Positions 58,188 through 63,808 of a stretch of DNA of 64,000 nt are shown one piece after another. The stretch is from a virus. The position numbers and the translations under genes were made by a program. A model generated the notes under the pieces. That model was not told the origin of the DNA. It made no database searches and saw nothing but the letters and a program-made list of their open reading frames with translations. The stretch's first letter is position 1. The number at the start of each line of letters is the position of its first letter. The stretch lies in the IMG/VR virus record IMGVR_UViG_3300017917_000405, positions 1-64,000 of that record. One strand, 5' to 3'.

Positions 58188-58340
58188 ATGGAAACAACAG
58201 TAACTTGTAAACTATGTGGAACAGAACTTAACATTACACTAGGTACATCAGAATCAATGAATATAGATGGAACAATGATTACAACAATTATTAGTGCAAT
58301 GGGTTCAGCAATTCACGATTGCCCCGCGCTTTCTGCGTAA
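58188..58340 (+). CDS. Small zinc-binding protein (50 aa)
   Basis: Manual translation METTVTCKLCG...IHDCP; TGATATACT-6 nt-ATG. Confidence 0.6.
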   Translation: METTVTCKLCGTELNITLGTSESMNIDGTMITTIISAMGSAIHDCPALSA

Positions 58341-58346
58341 CATTTT

Positions 58347-58396
58347 GTTATAAAATTTCGTTATAAATTTGTTATATATTGTTATCATTTTGTTAT
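58347..58396 (+). repeat. Five roughly helically phased GTTAT repeats
   Basis: GTTAT at 58347, 58360, 58371, 58381 and 58392. Confidence 0.75.
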
Positions 58397-58619
58397 AGTT
58401 CAAATTGAGAAAAATGTTAATAATATTTTATTTTGTATGATGTTGATATTTGTGTCCAAAATGTCCGTTTTGAGTAGTGCGCCCATAAATGTTCCTTACG
58501 ACCCCTATGTCCGTTTTGTGAGTTTTGTCATGGCGAATGGAATGCAGGCCCGTAGAATGGCGAAAGGACGGGAGGGTAGTTTCCTACCCCGCCGCCCTCT
58601 CGTGCCGCCTAGCGTCCCG

Positions 58620-59045
58620 CTAGATATCCTCGCCGCAGGTGTGGCAGTAGATCGCTGCCACTTGCTGGTCCCCGTTGTGATCTTCCTCCATGATCGCGCT
58701 GGTGAAATGATCTAGGTGTAGTGCCTTCCGTAGCCCGCGTGCCCATTCTGCGAACTCCATACCCTTGCGCTGCGCGTCGTGGGTCCATGCACCGTGGCAG
58801 GTGGCGCATAGCACCTGGCACTTAGACAGTTCCGCAAGCAGAGTGCGCGTGGAGTATCGGCGCACCATGTTCGCAGGGTGAACTACCTCGCCAGAGGCGT
58901 TGCGGTATTTGTTCGATGGATCTAGGTGGTCGAGCACTAGGCCCGCCGCGCTCGTGCGATATCCGCAGACTGTGCAACCGTGGGACAGTTTGTGCGCGTC
59001 AACTATGGCGCGATTGCGCTCCTGTGCCTGTCGTGAGATAGCCAT
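58620..59045 (-). CDS. HNH-like endonuclease
   Basis: CTVCG...LDHLDP...KCQVLCATCH; start reassigned to MAISRQ. Confidence 0.75.
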   Translation of the reverse strand: MAISRQAQERNRAIVDAHKLSHGCTVCGYRTSAAGLVLDHLDPSNKYRNASGEVVHPANMVRRYSTRTLLAELSKCQVLCATCHGAWTHDAQRKGMEFAEWARGLRKALHLDHFTSAIMEEDHNGDQQVAAIYCHTCGEDI

Positions 59046-59197
59046 CACGCACACTCCTCGCACCCGTAGGCCTGCAGGCAGTATTGGCACGCGCTGGCCT
59101 CGCAAGCCTCGCATGAGGCAAGCGGCGTCACGTTGTCGCACATATCGCAGGCGAACAGGTCGAAGTCCGAAAGGGAAAGGTGTTCTAGTTCTTGCAT
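59045..59197 (-). CDS. Four-CxxC microprotein (50 aa)
   Basis: Manual translation MQELEHLSLSDFDLFACDMCDNVTPLASCEACEASACQYCLQAYGCEECA; GGAGG RBS. Confidence 0.65.
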   Translation of the reverse strand: MQELEHLSLSDFDLFACDMCDNVTPLASCEACEASACQYCLQAYGCEECA

Positions 59198-59349
59198 GAC
59201 TGCCTCCAAGCGTTGTGAGGGGCAACGTCACAGACTGCACAACGCCGTCCCTCCTCCATAAAAATGATGTTGTGACTAGCGGCGTTAGCCTCTCGCACAC
59301 TCGGCTCCATCGCGTTGACCGCGTGGCCTAGTTCGACCATCGTGTCCAT
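59185..59349 (-). CDS. Small hypothetical protein
   Basis: MDTMVEL...H...CAVC...C; GAAAGG/AAGGA RBS. Confidence 0.6.
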   Translation of the reverse strand: MDTMVELGHAVNAMEPSVREANAASHNIIFMEEGRRCAVCDVAPHNAWRQSCKN

Positions 59350-59456
59350 TGTCCTTGCCTTTCGTGAGGTGTTTGTTCCCATGCCTTGATCCAAGCACCT
59401 TTCGATCATGTTGTCACGCCCAAACGGGAGCTTTTTTATCTTTTTTTTCAGAATGT

Positions 59457-59500
59457 TTATCCACAACCTTATCCACAGATTGTGCATAACCTGTGGAAAA
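59457..59500. promoter_or_regulatory. Cluster of four DnaA boxes
   Basis: TTATCCACA at 59457 and 59469; reverse-orientation TTATGCACA (59481-59489) and TTTTCCACA (59492-59500). Confidence 0.8.
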
Positions 59501-59516
59501 CCTGCAGTATCCCAAA

Positions 59517-59612
59517 TGTCCGATTTGTCCATTGTGTCCGATTTGTCTCAAATGTCCGTTTTGCCCTAGTTTGTCCTAGAATGTCCGAATTGCCCTAGAT
59601 TGTCCGATTTTG
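59517..59612 (+). repeat. Periodic TGTCCG(W)(W)TTG / TGYCY array
   Basis: TGTCCG at 59517, 59535, 59553, 59582 and 59601; TGYCY ten times at 9-10 bp spacing. Confidence 0.85.
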
Positions 59613-59787
59613 TTGTTTTTGTAACCTATTTACGAAAAGCCCGAAATATCACGAAAGTTCCTGGTGCTTTTGATCTAATTACGATAGGGGAAAATATCAC
59701 GGAAAGTTTATCGTTTTGTTATCAAATAGGCTTGACTTTCATGGTTATGTATGGTTAGATATTAGTAATACAAAGAAAGGTAAGGAA

Positions 59788-59889
59788 ATGCCAAAGGAAT
59801 TCAAGATCGCCATCGTTCCCGCCGTTGCATTGTTCGCGCTTTGCACCTACATCTGTATGTCAGCCCTGCGTGCTATCTTTGCTTTCTAG
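59788..59889 (+). CDS. Membrane microprotein (33 aa)
   Basis: MPKEFKIAIVPAVALFALCTYICMSALRAIFAF; GAAAGG/AAGGA RBS. Confidence 0.55.
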   Translation: MPKEFKIAIVPAVALFALCTYICMSALRAIFAF

Positions 59890-59898
59890 GAGGAAATC

Positions 59899-60030
59899 AT
59901 GATGCACATCTACTACTTAGGCCGCTACAAGAACAGCGAGCAAGACTACGACCGCGCTAGTGCGTGGGTAGCCAATGAGGTTGCGTCTAGTGGCGCGTCC
60001 TTTGCAGACTTTGAGATTGTGGAGGCATAA
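59899..60030 (+). CDS. Microprotein (43 aa)
   Basis: AGGAGG RBS; MMHIYYLGRY... Confidence 0.6.
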   Translation: MMHIYYLGRYKNSEQDYDRASAWVANEVASSGASFADFEIVEA

Positions 60031-60125
60031 TGAAACTCACTCATCGTGGCGAGGTTGCGATTGTCCTTGCTTTCATCGCTGGTTTTGCCTTTCTCTGTCA
60101 TGTCTTTGGCGAGGGGGGATTCTAA
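60030..60125 (+). CDS. Membrane microprotein (31 aa)
   Basis: MKLTHRGEVAIVLAFIAGFAFLCHVFGEGGF; GGAGG RBS and TAATG coupling. Confidence 0.6.
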   Translation: MKLTHRGEVAIVLAFIAGFAFLCHVFGEGGF

Positions 60126-60368
60126 ATGATGTACCATATCGTTCACCCATTAGCACATGGCGTTAGTGTCATCACTAAGAAAGAAGTGCCCATTGCTATG
60201 GCTACCGCAGATACTTGCGAGATTGCATTCTTTGACCAAGATGGTGAATGGGTTACTGATATCGTTTCAGAGTTTGTAGAGTATGCAGATAGCGTAGAAG
60301 GTGGCACGCTTGTCTATGGCTATGTGCCAAATGAAGATGTCGAAAACTTTTTAGAAAAATATTCGTAA
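60126..60368 (+). CDS. Acidic hypothetical protein
   Basis: CEIAFF...GEWV...VYGYVP. Confidence 0.65.
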   Translation: MMYHIVHPLAHGVSVITKKEVPIAMATADTCEIAFFDQDGEWVTDIVSEFVEYADSVEGGTLVYGYVPNEDVENFLEKYS

Positions 60369-60524
60369 TAGACTTGACAAACCCATTGATTTGGGTCCGG
60401 CCCCGAAATGTCCTATTTACGAAGTATGTACTTTTTCACAGAAAATATAACAGGTTTATAACAATATTGTTTATCATTTCGTTATAAATCAATGTCCGTT
60501 TTGTCATATCTACTCGTCAGTAAA

Positions 60525-60546
60525 TGTCAGACCCCTCTGATAGTTT
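60525..60546 (+). promoter_or_regulatory. TGTCAG-N10-TAnnnT promoter copy 1
   Basis: TGTCAG ACCCCTCTGA TAGTTT. Confidence 0.7.
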
Positions 60547-60634
60547 GTTTCTAGTAGAAAGGATTCACTTATGTTCATGTACATCATCTCCCTTGATTGT
60601 TCCCCCTGGAATGTCCCCGTCGTCTGCGATGAAA

Positions 60635-60656
60635 TGTCAGACCCCTCGGATAGACT
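60635..60656 (+). promoter_or_regulatory. TGTCAG-N10-TAnnnT promoter copy 2
   Basis: TGTCAG ACCCCTCGGA TAGACT. Confidence 0.7.
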
Positions 60657-60710
60657 TCACCCATCAATGATGAATCACATTGTCGATATCGAAACGATTG
60701 GATTGGTAGC

Positions 60711-60881
60711 ATGAGTACCCCCACCCTTCACCTTGCTGTCTGCCCGCGCTGTGCAGAAAACTTCCTCTCAACCTTTGAGGCAATCGACGATTGGGAAGAT
60801 GTTTGCGAGAAGTGCTACGAGGACTTCCTGCTTGACCTCTACCCCGACCTTGACTGGCAAGCCGAATACCACCACCTTTAG
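60711..60881 (+). CDS. Zinc-finger microprotein (56 aa)
   Basis: Manual translation with CPRC...CEKC and an acidic tail. Confidence 0.6.
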   Translation: MSTPTLHLAVCPRCAENFLSTFEAIDDWEDVCEKCYEDFLLDLYPDLDWQAEYHHL

Positions 60882-60888
60882 GAGAAAC

Positions 60889-61089
60889 ATGACTTACACA
60901 TTCACTACCCCATTCCTCCGCATTGATTGGCAGGAGGGTTCTCATACTGCTAACGTCACCACCGTTCGTGGAGATATGGACGTTTTCACGTTCGCATGGC
61001 ACAAAGACTATCCCGATGTTGTGGACTTCACCGAAGCCCTTGCATCATGGGTCAACTACTCGCTCACCGTGGAGGACGCTAATGTCTAA
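60889..61089 (+). CDS. Hypothetical protein
   Basis: AGGAGA RBS; MTYTFTTPFLRIDWQEG... Confidence 0.65.
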   Translation: MTYTFTTPFLRIDWQEGSHTANVTTVRGDMDVFTFAWHKDYPDVVDFTEALASWVNYSLTVEDANV

Positions 61090-61213
61090 CTATCTTGACT
61101 ACCTTCCCGAAGATGGCAACTTCACCGAAGATGAACTTTGGGACGCGATTGCAGAATCATTAGACGTTGATCCAGATGAGATCAGCGATGGAGATTTGGT
61201 GGACTACCTGTGA
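61082..61213 (+). CDS. Very acidic microprotein
   Basis: GGAGG RBS; MSNYLDYLPEDGNFTEDELWDAIAESLDVDPDEISDGDLVDYL. Confidence 0.65.
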   Translation: MSNYLDYLPEDGNFTEDELWDAIAESLDVDPDEISDGDLVDYL

Positions 61214-61419
61214 GCGATTACTTTATCTATCACCCAGGATCAGGAACAATGATCGCATTGTCAGATACTGTCTATGTCATTGACGCAACCTCTTTGACTG
61301 AACTAGAACTAGATGAATCAGAGGCAGGAGTGTTAGATATCTATCGCGTGATGGATATTGGTGTTCGCCTTGATAATGAATATTGGGACGAAGTACAAGA
61401 TGCAATGGAGGCAATGTAA
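61210..61419 (+). CDS. Acidic hypothetical protein
   Basis: GTGA coupling to the upstream gene. Confidence 0.6.
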   Translation: MSDYFIYHPGSGTMIALSDTVYVIDATSLTELELDESEAGVLDIYRVMDIGVRLDNEYWDEVQDAMEAM

Positions 61420-61565
61420 TGAAAACTAATAGAGAACTCAATCCAACAGAGTTTGAGATTGCATTCCAACTAAAGAATGCGTTAAACGAGTTGAGAAACT
61501 ATCAAGATATTCCCGCTGCTATTGAGCATATCGAATCAGCACTTACAAATCTGTATGAGTGGTGA
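61419..61565 (+). CDS. Small helical protein
   Basis: GGAGG RBS and TAATG coupling; MKTNRELNP... Confidence 0.6.
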   Translation: MKTNRELNPTEFEIAFQLKNALNELRNYQDIPAAIEHIESALTNLYEW

Positions 61566-61751
61566 CTTGACAAACTGAGATCTCGGGGCCGGACGGAACA
61601 AATCGGACATTTACGACAACCTAAAAAAGTCACGGAAATGTAACAATTTTTATTTTTATCGGCGTGTCAACTTGACAGACATATCGGACATATCTCCGTT
61701 ATCAAACCGTAATAAAACCTGTCCGTTTTGTATGTTTTTAGAATTAGGTAA

Positions 61752-61773
61752 TGTCAGACCCCTAGTGTAGAGT
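61752..61773 (+). promoter_or_regulatory. TGTCAG-N10-TAnnnT promoter copy 3
   Basis: TGTCAG ACCCCTAGTG TAGAGT. Confidence 0.7.
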
Positions 61774-61800
61774 GAGGGTACTAGTTAGAAAGGCTACAAA

Positions 61801-62070
61801 ATGATTCACGGTATTTACACTCCAATTTCAATGACTGCCGCCGATATTATTGGCGAGGAAACTATCATGGGAAGTGGCGGTGCGCCTGTCGTTATCCGTC
61901 GCGTGTCTAATGATTCTAAGACTGTCACTTTCATGGACGTGTACCGTGGAAAATTGTTCCGATTCCGCAAAGATCAAGCGGTCACAGTCCTTATCCGAGA
62001 GGACGAAAATGACCCTATCGTGCAAGCGGAATTGGCTTGTGCATTAGCAGATAAGGGGGTACAATTCTAA
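61801..62070 (+). CDS. Hypothetical protein (SH3-like beta barrel)
   Basis: GAAAGG RBS downstream of promoter copy 3. Confidence 0.65.
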   Translation: MIHGIYTPISMTAADIIGEETIMGSGGAPVVIRRVSNDSKTVTFMDVYRGKLFRFRKDQAVTVLIREDENDPIVQAELACALADKGVQF

Positions 62071-62071
62071 T

Positions 62072-62209
62072 ATGATAAAGAATCGTAAGCGTACCCGTGA
62101 GGAAATTACCCGCGTGCAGGAATTGCGTCGTAGTAATGCTGCCATGCCTCACAAGAACAAGTCACGTTACACCCGCAAGGTGAAGCATAAGGGGCAAGCG
62201 TATGCTTGA
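62072..62209 (+). CDS. Basic microprotein (45 aa)
   Basis: MIKNRKRTREEITRVQELRRSNAAMPHKNKSRYTRKVKHKGQAYA. Confidence 0.65.
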   Translation: MIKNRKRTREEITRVQELRRSNAAMPHKNKSRYTRKVKHKGQAYA

Positions 62210-62278
62210 GTTTATTCTAATCCTCGCCTGCTCTATTATCGGTGCTATCATTCTCGCCCTAGAACTCTAAGGAATAAA

Positions 62279-62383
62279 ATGAAAATTGATCTAGACTATG
62301 ACGCGCAATGCTATTGCGTAGATTGCTGCCCCGAAGGGTGTTGCCCTTGTGAGGACTGTAATGAGCCTTGCGACTGTCCATAA
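62279..62383 (+). CDS. Cys-rich metallothionein-like microprotein (34 aa)
   Basis: MKIDLDYDAQCYCVDCCPEGCCPCEDCNEPCDCP; TAAGGA RBS. Confidence 0.55.
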   Translation: MKIDLDYDAQCYCVDCCPEGCCPCEDCNEPCDCP

Positions 62384-62460
62384 CCTAATTCCATTCTATT
62401 GCGAACCCTGCCAGGAAATAGAGTTTTTCTGTGATACCTGCGGGGAAAACCTAATCGACT

Positions 62461-62482
62461 TGTCAGACCCCCATGCTAAGGT
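62461..62482 (+). promoter_or_regulatory. TGTCAG-N10-TAnnnT promoter copy 4 (leaderless)
   Basis: TGTCAG ACCCCCATGC TAAGGT, then 6 nt and the ATG at 62489. Confidence 0.72.
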
Positions 62483-62488
62483 GAACCC

Positions 62489-63040
62489 ATGATTAAAGAA
62501 ATTATCGCTGCCAATACTGTCACCCTCTACACGGAACGCTTTCGCTTCCTCGCCCTTCAAGCCACTATGTCACAGATTGAGTCTGCTGCAACGTGGTACT
62601 ATGACGCGCAGGAGGTTGCGGAGGACGTTGCGGAAAACTTAGGCGTATCGCTTGAGATCGGTGCTTCCATCGTTGCCGCATTCTCACCTCGTGAGCGTTG
62701 GGCAAGCAATGTTGCTAAGGCTCTCGCATTCTCATTAGGCAAGCCCGTTGCAGGATTGCAGAATAACTACCGTATGGCAGAACGTTCGATGGAATTGGGC
62801 TTTGACGCGCTCAACGGACTAAAGACTAATGCGTTCGCTCGTGCTATTGCAGGCGATAATGACGCGGTAGTTATTGACGTATGGATGTGCCGCGCTGCTG
62901 CTATTGGCACAGATTCACCTAACAAAACACAGTACAACGATCTGTCGCAAGCGGTTCGCAATGTTGCGGAAGAAATGGGAGTAACACCGCGCACCATGCA
63001 AGCACTAATTTGGATTATCATTAGAGGGAGTGCAAACTAA
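62489..63040 (+). CDS. Conserved phage protein, HhH-glycosylase-like
   Basis: WY...AAFSP...W..N, K..AF, VVIDVWMCR and QALIW. Confidence 0.6.
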   Translation: MIKEIIAANTVTLYTERFRFLALQATMSQIESAATWYYDAQEVAEDVAENLGVSLEIGASIVAAFSPRERWASNVAKALAFSLGKPVAGLQNNYRMAERSMELGFDALNGLKTNAFARAIAGDNDAVVIDVWMCRAAAIGTDSPNKTQYNDLSQAVRNVAEEMGVTPRTMQALIWIIIRGSAN

Positions 63041-63180
63041 TGCCTAAAGTAAAATTGCCCAGGGGAGAATGGGAAAGTATTCTCGTCACGTTAGAACTCG
63101 CACAACAACATAATATCGTTGCTTATTTAGATCCACTTATCAAAGAAATAGAAGATCAAGTCTACGCGCAGGAGTACTAA
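63040..63180 (+). CDS. Microprotein (46 aa)
   Basis: TAATG coupling; MPKVKLPRGEW... Confidence 0.6.
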   Translation: MPKVKLPRGEWESILVTLELAQQHNIVAYLDPLIKEIEDQVYAQEY

Positions 63181-63389
63181 AAATGCTAGATGATATCGCC
63201 GTCATGTTCATCACCGTGTTCGGTGTAATTATTTTATTTTTTTGGATTGCATCGCTAATTTTTTAGTGCGTTGCACTTGACAAATGCGATAAGCGGGGCC
63301 GGATCGGTTGTTACCTAACTGTTACGAAACTAACTTGATTTTCACAGAAATTTTTGCTAGGCTTTAGCCATCAACCACTAGGAGGACTC

Positions 63390-63509
63390 ATGGACCCGAT
63401 TTTCGAATTCTCAGACGGCTTTGACGCTGTTGGCTGGTACACGGAGCAGTTGTCCAAGCGCGACCACGACGACTATGGCTGGGACTACATAGAAGAATAC
63501 CCCTACTAG
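63390..63509 (+). CDS. Acidic aromatic microprotein (39 aa)
   Basis: AGGAGG RBS after a TTGATT-17-TAGGCT promoter. Confidence 0.6.
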   Translation: MDPIFEFSDGFDAVGWYTEQLSKRDHDDYGWDYIEEYPY

Positions 63510-63583
63510 AAAGGGGCCGGACTTTTCTAAACCTCTTTTACGATAGTGCTTGACTTTCACAGGAATTATGGTAAGTTTGACTT

Positions 63584-63808
63584 ATGAGCGAATCTACTGA
63601 AACCATCGAAACCGCATATCAACTCAATGCAAATGATAGGTGTGATAAGTGTCAAGCACAAGCATATTTCTGGGTGAATGGAGTAGCAGGGGATCTTCTT
63701 TTCTGCCGCCATCATTTCTTGGAAAATGAAGAAAAAATTCGTGCTTATGCCTTTGAAATTGTAGATGAATCTGATAAGATCAACGAAAGGTCTGAATCAA
63801 GTGCTTAG
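63584..63808 (+). CDS. Small zinc-binding protein of an actinobacterial family
   Basis: LNANDRCDKCQAQAY...LLFCRHH; leaderless start. Confidence 0.7.
   Translation: MSESTETIETAYQLNANDRCDKCQAQAYFWVNGVAGDLLFCRHHFLENEEKIRAYAFEIVDESDKINERSESSA

Follow-up and report, generated by a model that had tools for sequence, protein, structure and literature searches.

The DNA between positions 58340 and 63584 of the virus record IMGVR_UViG_3300017917_000405 (IMG/VR) is crowded with short repeated motifs, and it raises the question of what such a collection of sites is for. The window analyzed here comprises bases 1-64000 of this 94,728-bp record. A preliminary description took the region for a non-coding switchboard of host-regulator sites, forming one system that would read or titrate host cell-cycle and damage regulators or gate a two-step injection of the DNA. 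We propose instead, with confidence somewhat above even, that 58340-63584 is a control hub followed by the first third of an early-gene arm, whose small operons are headed by cassettes of ordered motifs and are served in part by promoters built like those of the actinobacterial regulator PafBC.

The phage and its early-gene arm

The ends of the record overlap by 99 bp, which marks it as a circular assembly; the physical termini are therefore unplaced. Judged by its gene content, the phage is a lytic siphovirus of ~95 kb with an actinobacterial host. It encodes structural proteins (tape measure protein, portal, protease) and, for replication and nucleotide metabolism, a DnaE-type polymerase, DnaB, DnaG, SSB, a UvsX-like recombinase, ribonucleotide reductase (RNR) and ThyX. 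The host assignment is based upon a WhiB gene (78964-79137, minus strand), a portal with 54% identity to those of Streptomyces BE2-cluster phages such as BillNye, and the occurrence of DUF7178 relatives in Mycobacterium, Gordonia and Rhodococcus phages. A ThyX with 66% identity lies on a contig binned with an Aquiluna metagenome-assembled genome (MAG), which is a host hint only. Genes are on the minus strand in 1-55.3 kb and 70.3-94.6 kb, whereas those on the plus strand form a ThyX cluster at 55.2-57.8 kb and, at 59.8-70.2 kb, a 10.4-kb arm with ~45 tiny genes.

The scarcity of intergenic DNA elsewhere, noted in the preliminary description, is borne out: ~4% of 1-55.3 kb is non-coding versus 23% of 58340-63584. 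The region is not, however, the non-coding DNA that it had been called, as ~77% of it is open reading frame (ORF) and at least eight of its tiny ORFs have protein-level homologues in relatives. Some 20 tiny genes on the plus strand share it with a GC-rich HNH island, and six gaps measure 74-269 bp. No match was returned when the region was compared by megablast with 50,697 phage records, and Rfam returned nothing at E <= 0.1 over 58-70.6 kb. For comparison, 18 related loci were collected via DUF7178 (45-76% amino-acid identity, 36-60% GC), which are cited below by L numbers where they need to be told apart.

Each motif class was present well above chance expectation and shuffles. The motif families are kept in ~15 related uncultured phages, and the pair of DnaA box and ATGTCCG iteron reaches Streptomyces BE2 phages; the ordered set is conserved in the clade and is not a chance collection. 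Of the proposed host-regulator sites, the DnaA boxes and the PafBC-type promoters match well-defined sites of this kind; TTACGA/TCAC is not a general actinobacterial site, and for ATGTCCG, GGGGCCGGAC and GTTAT we can name no binder.

PafBC-type promoters

PafBC is activated by single-stranded DNA (ssDNA) (PMC11804915). It inserts between region 4 of sigma-A and the DNA, termed "sigma adaptation", at promoters with the consensus tGTCgg-N10-tAnnnT, in which an invariant GTC is read by PafB and no -35 element is present (PMC8635444). The phage counterpart, TGTCAG-N10-TAnnnT, was found five times in the window, where 0.74 would be expected; five were reached in none of the shuffles. An identical TGTCAGACCCC is shared by four window copies (60525, 60635, 61752 and 62461), and three further TGTCAG promoters lie past the window at 64046, 65490 and 66677 (seven in the genome). 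A lone TGTCAG-N10-TAnnnT also stands at 78859, just downstream of the WhiB gene.

Most relatives have promoters of this class on the gene strand, the largest number being 26 (L017). The genome and 15 relatives together hold 134 unique sites with exact N10 spacing, and a looser pattern gave 168 sites on the gene strand versus 17 on the opposite strand. The profile of the 134 sites, AA-TGTCAGACCC-ct-n-TGn-TAnnnT-N6-YA, reads as a -26 element, an extended -10 and a start site, and contains no conserved -35. TTGACA is likewise missing from five of the seven genomic sites; those at 65482 and 66669 have it 2 nt upstream. The AATGTCAGACCC-N-TGnTAnnnT promoters of the phage therefore have the exact bipartite geometry of PafBC promoters (PMC8635444), with the invariant GTC, mostly without a -35 and with predicted leaderless or short-leader starts. 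They differ from known PafBC promoters in being viral and multicopy, in preceding tiny, function-unassigned genes, in a longer and nearly invariant -26 word to which an extended -10 TG is added, and in the two copies that also bear TTGACA. The internal promoter at 62461-62482 (plus strand) illustrates the leaderless type: with the start placed at the conserved YA seven nucleotides past the -10, its transcript would begin at the ATG of the DUF7178 gene (62489).

A further likeness is the presence of the extended phage word on bacterial chromosomes. Among 401 genomes sampled across Actinomycetota, TGTCAGACC-N7-TAnnnT gave ~200 matches versus ~25 for the reversed control; the unpublished genome G344 is one of 68 genomes within this tally, and no claim is based on it. 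Nine sampled chromosomal sites lie 6-36 nt upstream of ORFs, which encode an SbcD-like phosphoesterase, LysM, DUF2779 (two genomes), Cas9 (two genomes) and HNH/DUF222, while two have no family match. By their annotation these genes are a repair and defence set, as expected for a PafBC regulon. The sites before cas9 (8-22 nt upstream in G221 and G273; loci L058 and L060) suggest a PafBC-type control of CRISPR-Cas in some actinobacteria.

The phage itself was searched for a WYL domain and for sigma region 2, and both were absent. Four small actinobacterial genomes were examined for tandem WYL gene pairs, and all four had them, the Aquiluna MAG with the related ThyX among them. On these two grounds, use of the host's PafBC appears to be the most economical reading of the promoter class.

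Cassettes of ordered motifs

The early arm is divided by cassettes into at least eight mini-operons. That the motifs recur in similar order proved correct, as one order is repeated at least seven times in this genome: TTGACAAA, 10-11 nt, GGGGCCGGAC, TTACGA-N13-TCACnGRAA, sometimes GTTAT pairs and one ATGTCCG, and a promoter.

All cassettes described here are on the plus strand. Cassette 2 (60369-60570) contains TTGACAAA (60374), an inverted TCCGGCCCC (60394-60403) and TTACGA-N13-TCACAGAAA (60417-60444), then GTTAT pairs (60447-60490), ATGTCCGTTTTG (60492) and a PafBC-type promoter (60525-60546); a second promoter of the class, with TGTCAGACCCCTCGGATAGACT, follows at 60635-60656 (plus strand). 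Cassette 3 (61566-61800) begins with TTGACAAA (61567), GGGGCCGGAC (61585) and an inverted ATGTCCGATTTG (61599-61610), continues with TTACGA-N13-TCACGGAAA (61611-61638), GGCGTGTC-N3-TTGACA (61661-61677) and an inverted ATGTCCG (61680-61691), and ends with GTTAT/GTAAT (61698-61713), CTGTCCGTTTTG (61719) and a PafBC-type promoter (61752-61773). In both cassettes ATGTCCG stands 33 nt before TGTCAG, so that the iteron binder probably tunes these two promoters. Cassettes 4 and 5 carry sigma-A-type promoters instead. Cassette 4 (63267-63389) has TTGACAAA (63277), GGGGCCGGAT (63295) and TTACGA-N14-TCACAGAAA (63322-63350), the last overlapped by TTGATT-N17-TAGGCT (63335-63363), and cassette 5 (63510-63583) has GGGGCCGGAC (63513) and TTACGA-N13-TCACAGGAA (63538-63565), overlapped by TTGACT-N16-TAAGTT (63550-63577). 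Simple sigma-70 and terminator scans showed no overall enrichment.

The same order was found in L007, L008, L009, L010, L012, L018 and L020. In L008, L018 and L020 the plan is a hairpin and T-run, a GC word, TGTCAA, TTACGA-N13-TCACnGAAA (often doubled at a 10-bp period) and a TGTCAGACC promoter; L007, L009, L010 and L012 keep the plan, with TTAAGA direct repeats that may fill the TTACGA slot. The GACACGCCG motif of the preliminary description does not recur here, being single-copy (61660, minus strand), and stands as a conserved element, kept in relatives as GGCGTGTC-N3-TTGACA. This element (61661-61677; also in L007, L009, L012, L013, L019 and L021) is an inverted repeat, GTGTC-N5-GACA(C), perfect in L013, that comprises two WhiA-type GACAC half-sites and usually lies just before DnaA boxes. 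The WhiA word GACAC was not enriched in the gaps.

TTACGA-N13-TCAC occurs four times in the window against 0.03 expected, and all 12 copies of TTACGA-N12-14-TCAC in the genome are in the same orientation within 59.6-69.5 kb. Against 151 actinobacterial genomes the composite gave two matches versus two for the control. With no enrichment on these chromosomes, we rejected it as a general host regulator site. Because it is also variable among relatives, its binder is more likely to be specific to the clade, and probably encoded by the phage, than to be a universal host factor. Comparing presence and absence of early proteins with that of TTACGA sites across relatives pointed out no regulator. The phased repeats resemble sites of OmpR-family proteins such as MtrA, whose box is the direct repeat GTnAC-N5/6-GTnAC (PMC13189361, PMC4285127). 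GTnA(C/T)-N5-7-GTnA(C/T) direct repeats number 10 in the six gaps against 0.67 expected (15-fold), and no OmpR winged helix was found in a search of the phage; we take the resemblance as a lead only. The CRP/GlxR palindrome TGTGA-N6-TCACA has no exact copy in the genome, and its cassette-linked copies with up to two mismatches do not exceed chance.

The GGGGCCGGAC slot is distinguished by its CCGG. This tetranucleotide occurs nine times in the genome against 65 expected, seven of the nine being inside the GGGGCCGGAC word, and relatives keep it almost only in that slot. AGCT is rarer still (see below). The rarity of both suggests that the host practises AluI-like and HpaII-like restriction and that the surviving copies mark sites the phage cannot do without; those in control sites have been retained against a strong genome-wide counter-selection.

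Hairpins with T-runs are clear in L010, L018 and L020. When six cassette heads of this genome were folded as RNA, only the hairpin at 69.35 kb was significant (z = -3.9), and a reading of the heads as RNA elements or RNase III sites was dropped for this genome. That hairpin ends in GGGGCCGGAC and belongs to a ~600-bp AT-rich gene-free stretch at the far end of the arm (69.34-69.95 kb; L023:11340-11950), which also holds three TTACGA-N13-TCA units, GTTAT pairs on both strands and two copies of ATAGGTTTTTCCTAT. This stretch has the look of another control or boundary region.

The repeated words, AATGTCAGACCC included, might all be read by phage proteins (an early activator, for example, or a factor that appropriates sigma as T4 MotA/AsiA do), and the likeness to PafBC would then be convergence or mimicry. 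Such a purely phage-run circuit would account for a -26 word that is invariant over 12 bases across phages of 36-48% GC, and the arm, with its dozens of function-unassigned proteins, could supply the readers. The absence of TTACGA/TCAC from host chromosomes and its replacement by TTAAGA in some relatives are likewise expected of co-evolving phage factors. We nonetheless consider it unlikely. The enrichment of TGTCAGACC(C), at the same spacing, before repair and defence genes of actinobacterial chromosomes implies that a host reader exists, and no WYL, sigma, OmpR-type or other recognizable DNA-binding domain was found in the phage. Furthermore, promoters used at the start of infection cannot need phage proteins that are not yet made, unless these are carried in the virion.

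The origin-like hub

The hub (59.43-59.62 kb) is centered on four DnaA boxes within 44 bp (59457-59500), 11-12 bp apart: two perfect direct boxes (TTATCCACA; 59457 and 59469) and two inverted boxes with one mismatch each (59481 and 59492). The largest cluster in shuffles had three. Clusters exceeding shuffles were also found in nine related loci and in Streptomyces phage BillNye; in relatives they usually lie 180-430 bp upstream of a TGTCAG promoter, and some phages have several. Directly before the boxes is a T-rich tract headed by AGCT (59429-59456, plus strand). This AGCT (59429-59432) is the sole copy in the 94.6-kb genome, where 271 are expected, and several relatives have none in 14-20 kb. 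The same context of AGCTTTTTT plus DnaA box was found in L012.

Beyond the boxes is an iteron-like array of five ATGTCCGWTTTG repeats with an 18-19 bp period (59512-59611, plus strand). ATGTCCGWTTTG has seven exact copies genome-wide, all inside 58461-61610. A pair of exact ATGTCCGTTTTG sites (58461 and 58507, spanning 58461-58518 on the plus strand) has a TTACGA (58496) between its members. Two TTACGA-N12/13-TCACGRAAG units follow the array (59630-59705, plus strand), and a possible sigma-A -35 (TTGACT, 59732-59737) with a weak -10 precedes the first early genes. The hub is a point of divergent transcription, where the coding strand switches; the GC skew also turns there, which is confounded with gene orientation.

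Farther upstream, TTTGTTATAAA is repeated 4.8 times at an 11-bp period (58344-58397, plus strand; Tandem Repeats Finder), with GC down to 15%, and is a candidate unwinding or terminal element. Other GTTAT pairs occur at 59709, 60447-60490 and 61698, as well as in L007 and L012. With respect to an AT-rich element at the hub, the 28-bp T-rich tract adjoins the boxes, while the strongly AT-rich 58344-58440 lies ~1 kb off, beyond the HNH island.

In BillNye, CGGACAT repeats, including AAATCGGACAT (the iteron reverse complement), abut three TTATCCACA boxes, and an element of this type is conserved non-coding DNA in at least 32 BE2 Streptomyces phages. The BillNye element (119.3-119.7 kb; L028:14300-14720) is unannotated in BE2 phages, and 96 bp of it also match two 18-kb Streptomyces phages, Forthebois and RickRoss. 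A hammerhead-like CUGAUGAG suspected within it found no support.

P1 oriR, F oriS and pSC101 are iteron-type origins that also use host DnaA. The hub resembles them in having DnaA boxes beside an A+T-rich tract and an 18-19 bp direct-repeat array, with extra single iterons elsewhere. It differs in that no Rep gene was recognized beside the array and in belonging to a lytic phage with its own DnaB, DnaG and DnaE. Family searches of the phage, which recovered these and SSB, showed no recognizable initiator and no Rep-like protein, and DnaA domain IV was not found among its proteins. We give even odds to the hub being an origin that uses host DnaA. Since some relatives have several DnaA clusters, it may alternatively have a role in transcription or titration.

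Genome ends and DNA entry

The preliminary description had compared the region with the injection-stop region of T5, and this analogy has a basis in the literature. In T5-like phages, eight DnaA boxes and many repeats lie at the inner edge of the first-step-transfer DNA (bioRxiv 10.1101/866236). Like that region, described by Davison, the arm consists of small early genes bounded by repeat-rich untranslated DNA with phased DnaA boxes, and related isolated phages are linear with direct terminal repeats. Unlike it, the region has four boxes rather than eight and untranslated stretches of 74-269 bp rather than kilobases, and in relatives the boxes sit before individual promoters.

Related phages give some indication of where an end might be. 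The terminal repeat of BillNye is 2,262 bp, those of BE1 relatives are ~11 kb (PMC5764925), and in the BE2 phages (at least 32, with mapped linear ends) the right end of the linear record is always 6.5-7.7 kb away from the DnaA/iteron element. When its minus strand is followed, the phage has the topology of circularized BillNye and Blueeyedbeauty: iterons, DnaA boxes and small genes toward the end, then an opposing ThyX cluster, GT and RNR, onward to the portal. From this synteny a physical end is weakly predicted at 58.2-58.6 kb, in the gap occupied by the GTTAT array. The terminal sequences of BillNye and Blueeyedbeauty share no motif with that array. An end at 69.5-69.9 kb was rejected, as the orientation of iterons relative to DnaA boxes disagreed. 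The common contig end of the "linear" relatives G402 and G403 was also rejected as a terminus: the ends of G402 overlap by 14 nt of low-complexity sequence, G403 breaks elsewhere, and both are assembly breaks.

These observations bear on the proposal that the region is one device, which would titrate or read host DnaA and damage regulators or would halt DNA entry in the manner of T5, where membrane-bound DnaA might hold the box cluster until early proteins free it. The position of the BE2 element, the long repeats of BE1 relatives and the candidate end agree with such a device, as does the load of ~20 boxes in 250 bp in L008, which is datA-like. The proposal is weakened by the circularity of the assembly, which leaves the ends unplaced, and by the contig ends of relatives having turned out to be breaks. 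Moreover, this genome has four boxes only, the T5 DnaA model is itself a proposal, and no A1/A2-like genes were recognized, the family matches of early-arm proteins being uninformative and no A1/A2 reference sequences having been compared. In relatives the boxes are spread over several separate promoter cassettes, a better fit to transcription or origin control than to a single titration or injection-stop device. We assign a low probability to the reading of the region as one such system.

Discussion

The explanation that we favor, at somewhat better than even confidence, joins the origin-like hub, the cassette-headed early arm and the PafBC-type promoters in one model. Host DnaA would open the hub for the phage's own replisome of DnaB, DnaG and DnaE, and a phage protein would bind the ATGTCCG iterons along with their single-copy satellites at two downstream promoters. 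Each cassette would be headed by a boundary element, TTGACAAA-N10-GGGGCCGGAC, which in relatives takes the form of a terminator hairpin and the same GC word. The helically phased TTACGA and then TCACnGRAA repeats would be the operator, or upstream activating site, of a regulator that is specific to the clade and probably encoded by the phage, and would be followed by a promoter of either the ordinary sigma-A type or the AATGTCAGACCC-N-TGnTAnnnT type. Host RNA polymerase would read the latter only when PafBC bridges sigma-A to the -26 element. As ssDNA switches PafBC on, this promoter class would be triggered by the DNA damage or replication that the phage causes. The motifs, their order, strand bias, conservation and geometry and their host-chromosome counterparts are observed directly; the binders of the sites, the timing and the origin function are what we infer from them.

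Several points weigh against this model. A significant hairpin is present in only one or two cassettes of this genome, which makes the terminator part weak. The first mini-operon is preceded only by the possible sigma-A -35 and weak -10. Multiple DnaA cassettes in relatives (three clusters each in L018 and L005) are unusual for a single origin and agree no less well with transcriptional control or titration; the phage yielded no Rep-like protein for the iterons, and the HNH island separates the AT-rich GTTAT array from the DnaA boxes. Finally, the -26 word, with 12 nearly invariant bases, is far more uniform than mycobacterial PafBC sites, so that a conserved phage factor could be its reader instead of PafBC.

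A wider version of the model is tentative, and we would sooner doubt it than accept it. It holds that across the clade, in uncultured lake phages and Streptomyces BE2 phages alike, the cassette wires the early program to the state of the host, PafBC firing the promoters while the DnaA boxes and a reader of the direct repeats gate them, and the hub acting as both origin and checkpoint near the entering end. If so, host alarm and cell-cycle regulators would serve as a developmental clock for the phage.

Comparable early regions are known. The host-takeover module of SPO1 is ~10 kb of very small early genes with many closely spaced promoters and terminators, and it uses plain sigma-A early promoters and lies in the mapped terminal redundancy. 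The present arm is a similar block of ~10 kb with very small early genes and many promoters; to our knowledge, the SPO1 module has neither host-activator-type promoters nor DnaA boxes. The T4-type PeSLs are short repeated cassettes of a terminator stem-loop and a strong early promoter in hyperplastic regions of small, seemingly non-essential genes (PMC2839356). The phage cassettes are similar in layout and differ by adding ordered DnaA boxes, TTACGA/TCAC, GGGGCCGGAC and ATGTCCG and a second, activator-type promoter class, and by the weak stem-loops of this genome. It is very improbable that the cassettes are, like PeSLs, mainly mobile modules that shuffle small genes by recombination with regulation secondary: they do border ORFan genes that evolve fast and vary in content from one relative to another, and the HNH island is inverted inside the hub, but the motifs are conserved while the spacers between them are not, so the cassettes are not simple repeats of a length that would permit homologous exchange (shared blocks in this genome reach 22-31 nt at most), and CCGG kept against a genome-wide purge speaks for site-specific function.

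Multi-promoter early regions of phages are thus well known; copies of the PafBC class are not. A literature search found no paper on PafBC-type promoters in phages or on DnaA-box cassettes in actinophages. The novelty in our view is that promoters of an activator type, copied from the host damage regulon, are combined within cassettes with DnaA boxes and further words in a set order. Four features are specific to this genome: the operator of TTACGA/TCAC direct repeats, the ATGTCCG iterons in common with Streptomyces phages, the AGCT and CCGG survivors and the HNH island in the hub. Should PafBC drive these promoters, a host ssDNA alarm would have been turned into a trigger of phage expression, and PafBC would be a host factor required by the phage, which would matter for host range and for the way WYL proteins regulate defence. 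The AGCT and CCGG copies that outlived the purge in control sites provide an internal marker of functionally indispensable words. As the hub is common to culturable Streptomyces phages, these offer a bench system for deciding between origin, DnaA sink and entry checkpoint.

Additional features of the region

The GC-rich island (58500-59400, minus strand; ~60% GC vs 39% for the genome) contains an HNH endonuclease gene (58620-59300; PHROG HNH match, 1e-16), beside which one or two small minus-strand genes extend to 59532. Homologues in relatives are located elsewhere and in the opposite orientation. For this reason the island is probably a mobile insertion that split the control region between the GTTAT array and the DnaA boxes.

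The first mini-operon (59789-60368, plus strand) has four tiny genes (33, 43, 31 and 80 aa), which are ORFs with ribosome-binding sites; the 80-aa product is conserved in five related loci. The second (60571-61565, plus strand) has about six tiny genes, three of which (60889-61089, 61082-61213 and 61210-61419) have products conserved in three to four related loci. About eight genes make up the third (61801-63266, plus strand), including DUF7178 (62489-63040; Pfam match, 6e-34). A DUF7455 gene (63584-63808) directly follows cassette 5. Pfam and PHROG searches of the conserved tiny proteins yielded no DNA-binding candidate. The third mini-operon also encodes a very basic 45-aa protein (62072-62209) with homologues in 10 related loci, the most conserved of the tiny early genes; it has weak similarity to DUF7230 and is a candidate nucleic-acid binder. 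Just beyond the arm, at 71.8-73.1 kb of the genome, five tRNA genes (Asn, Thr, Ile, Arg and Gly) are interleaved with endonuclease genes.

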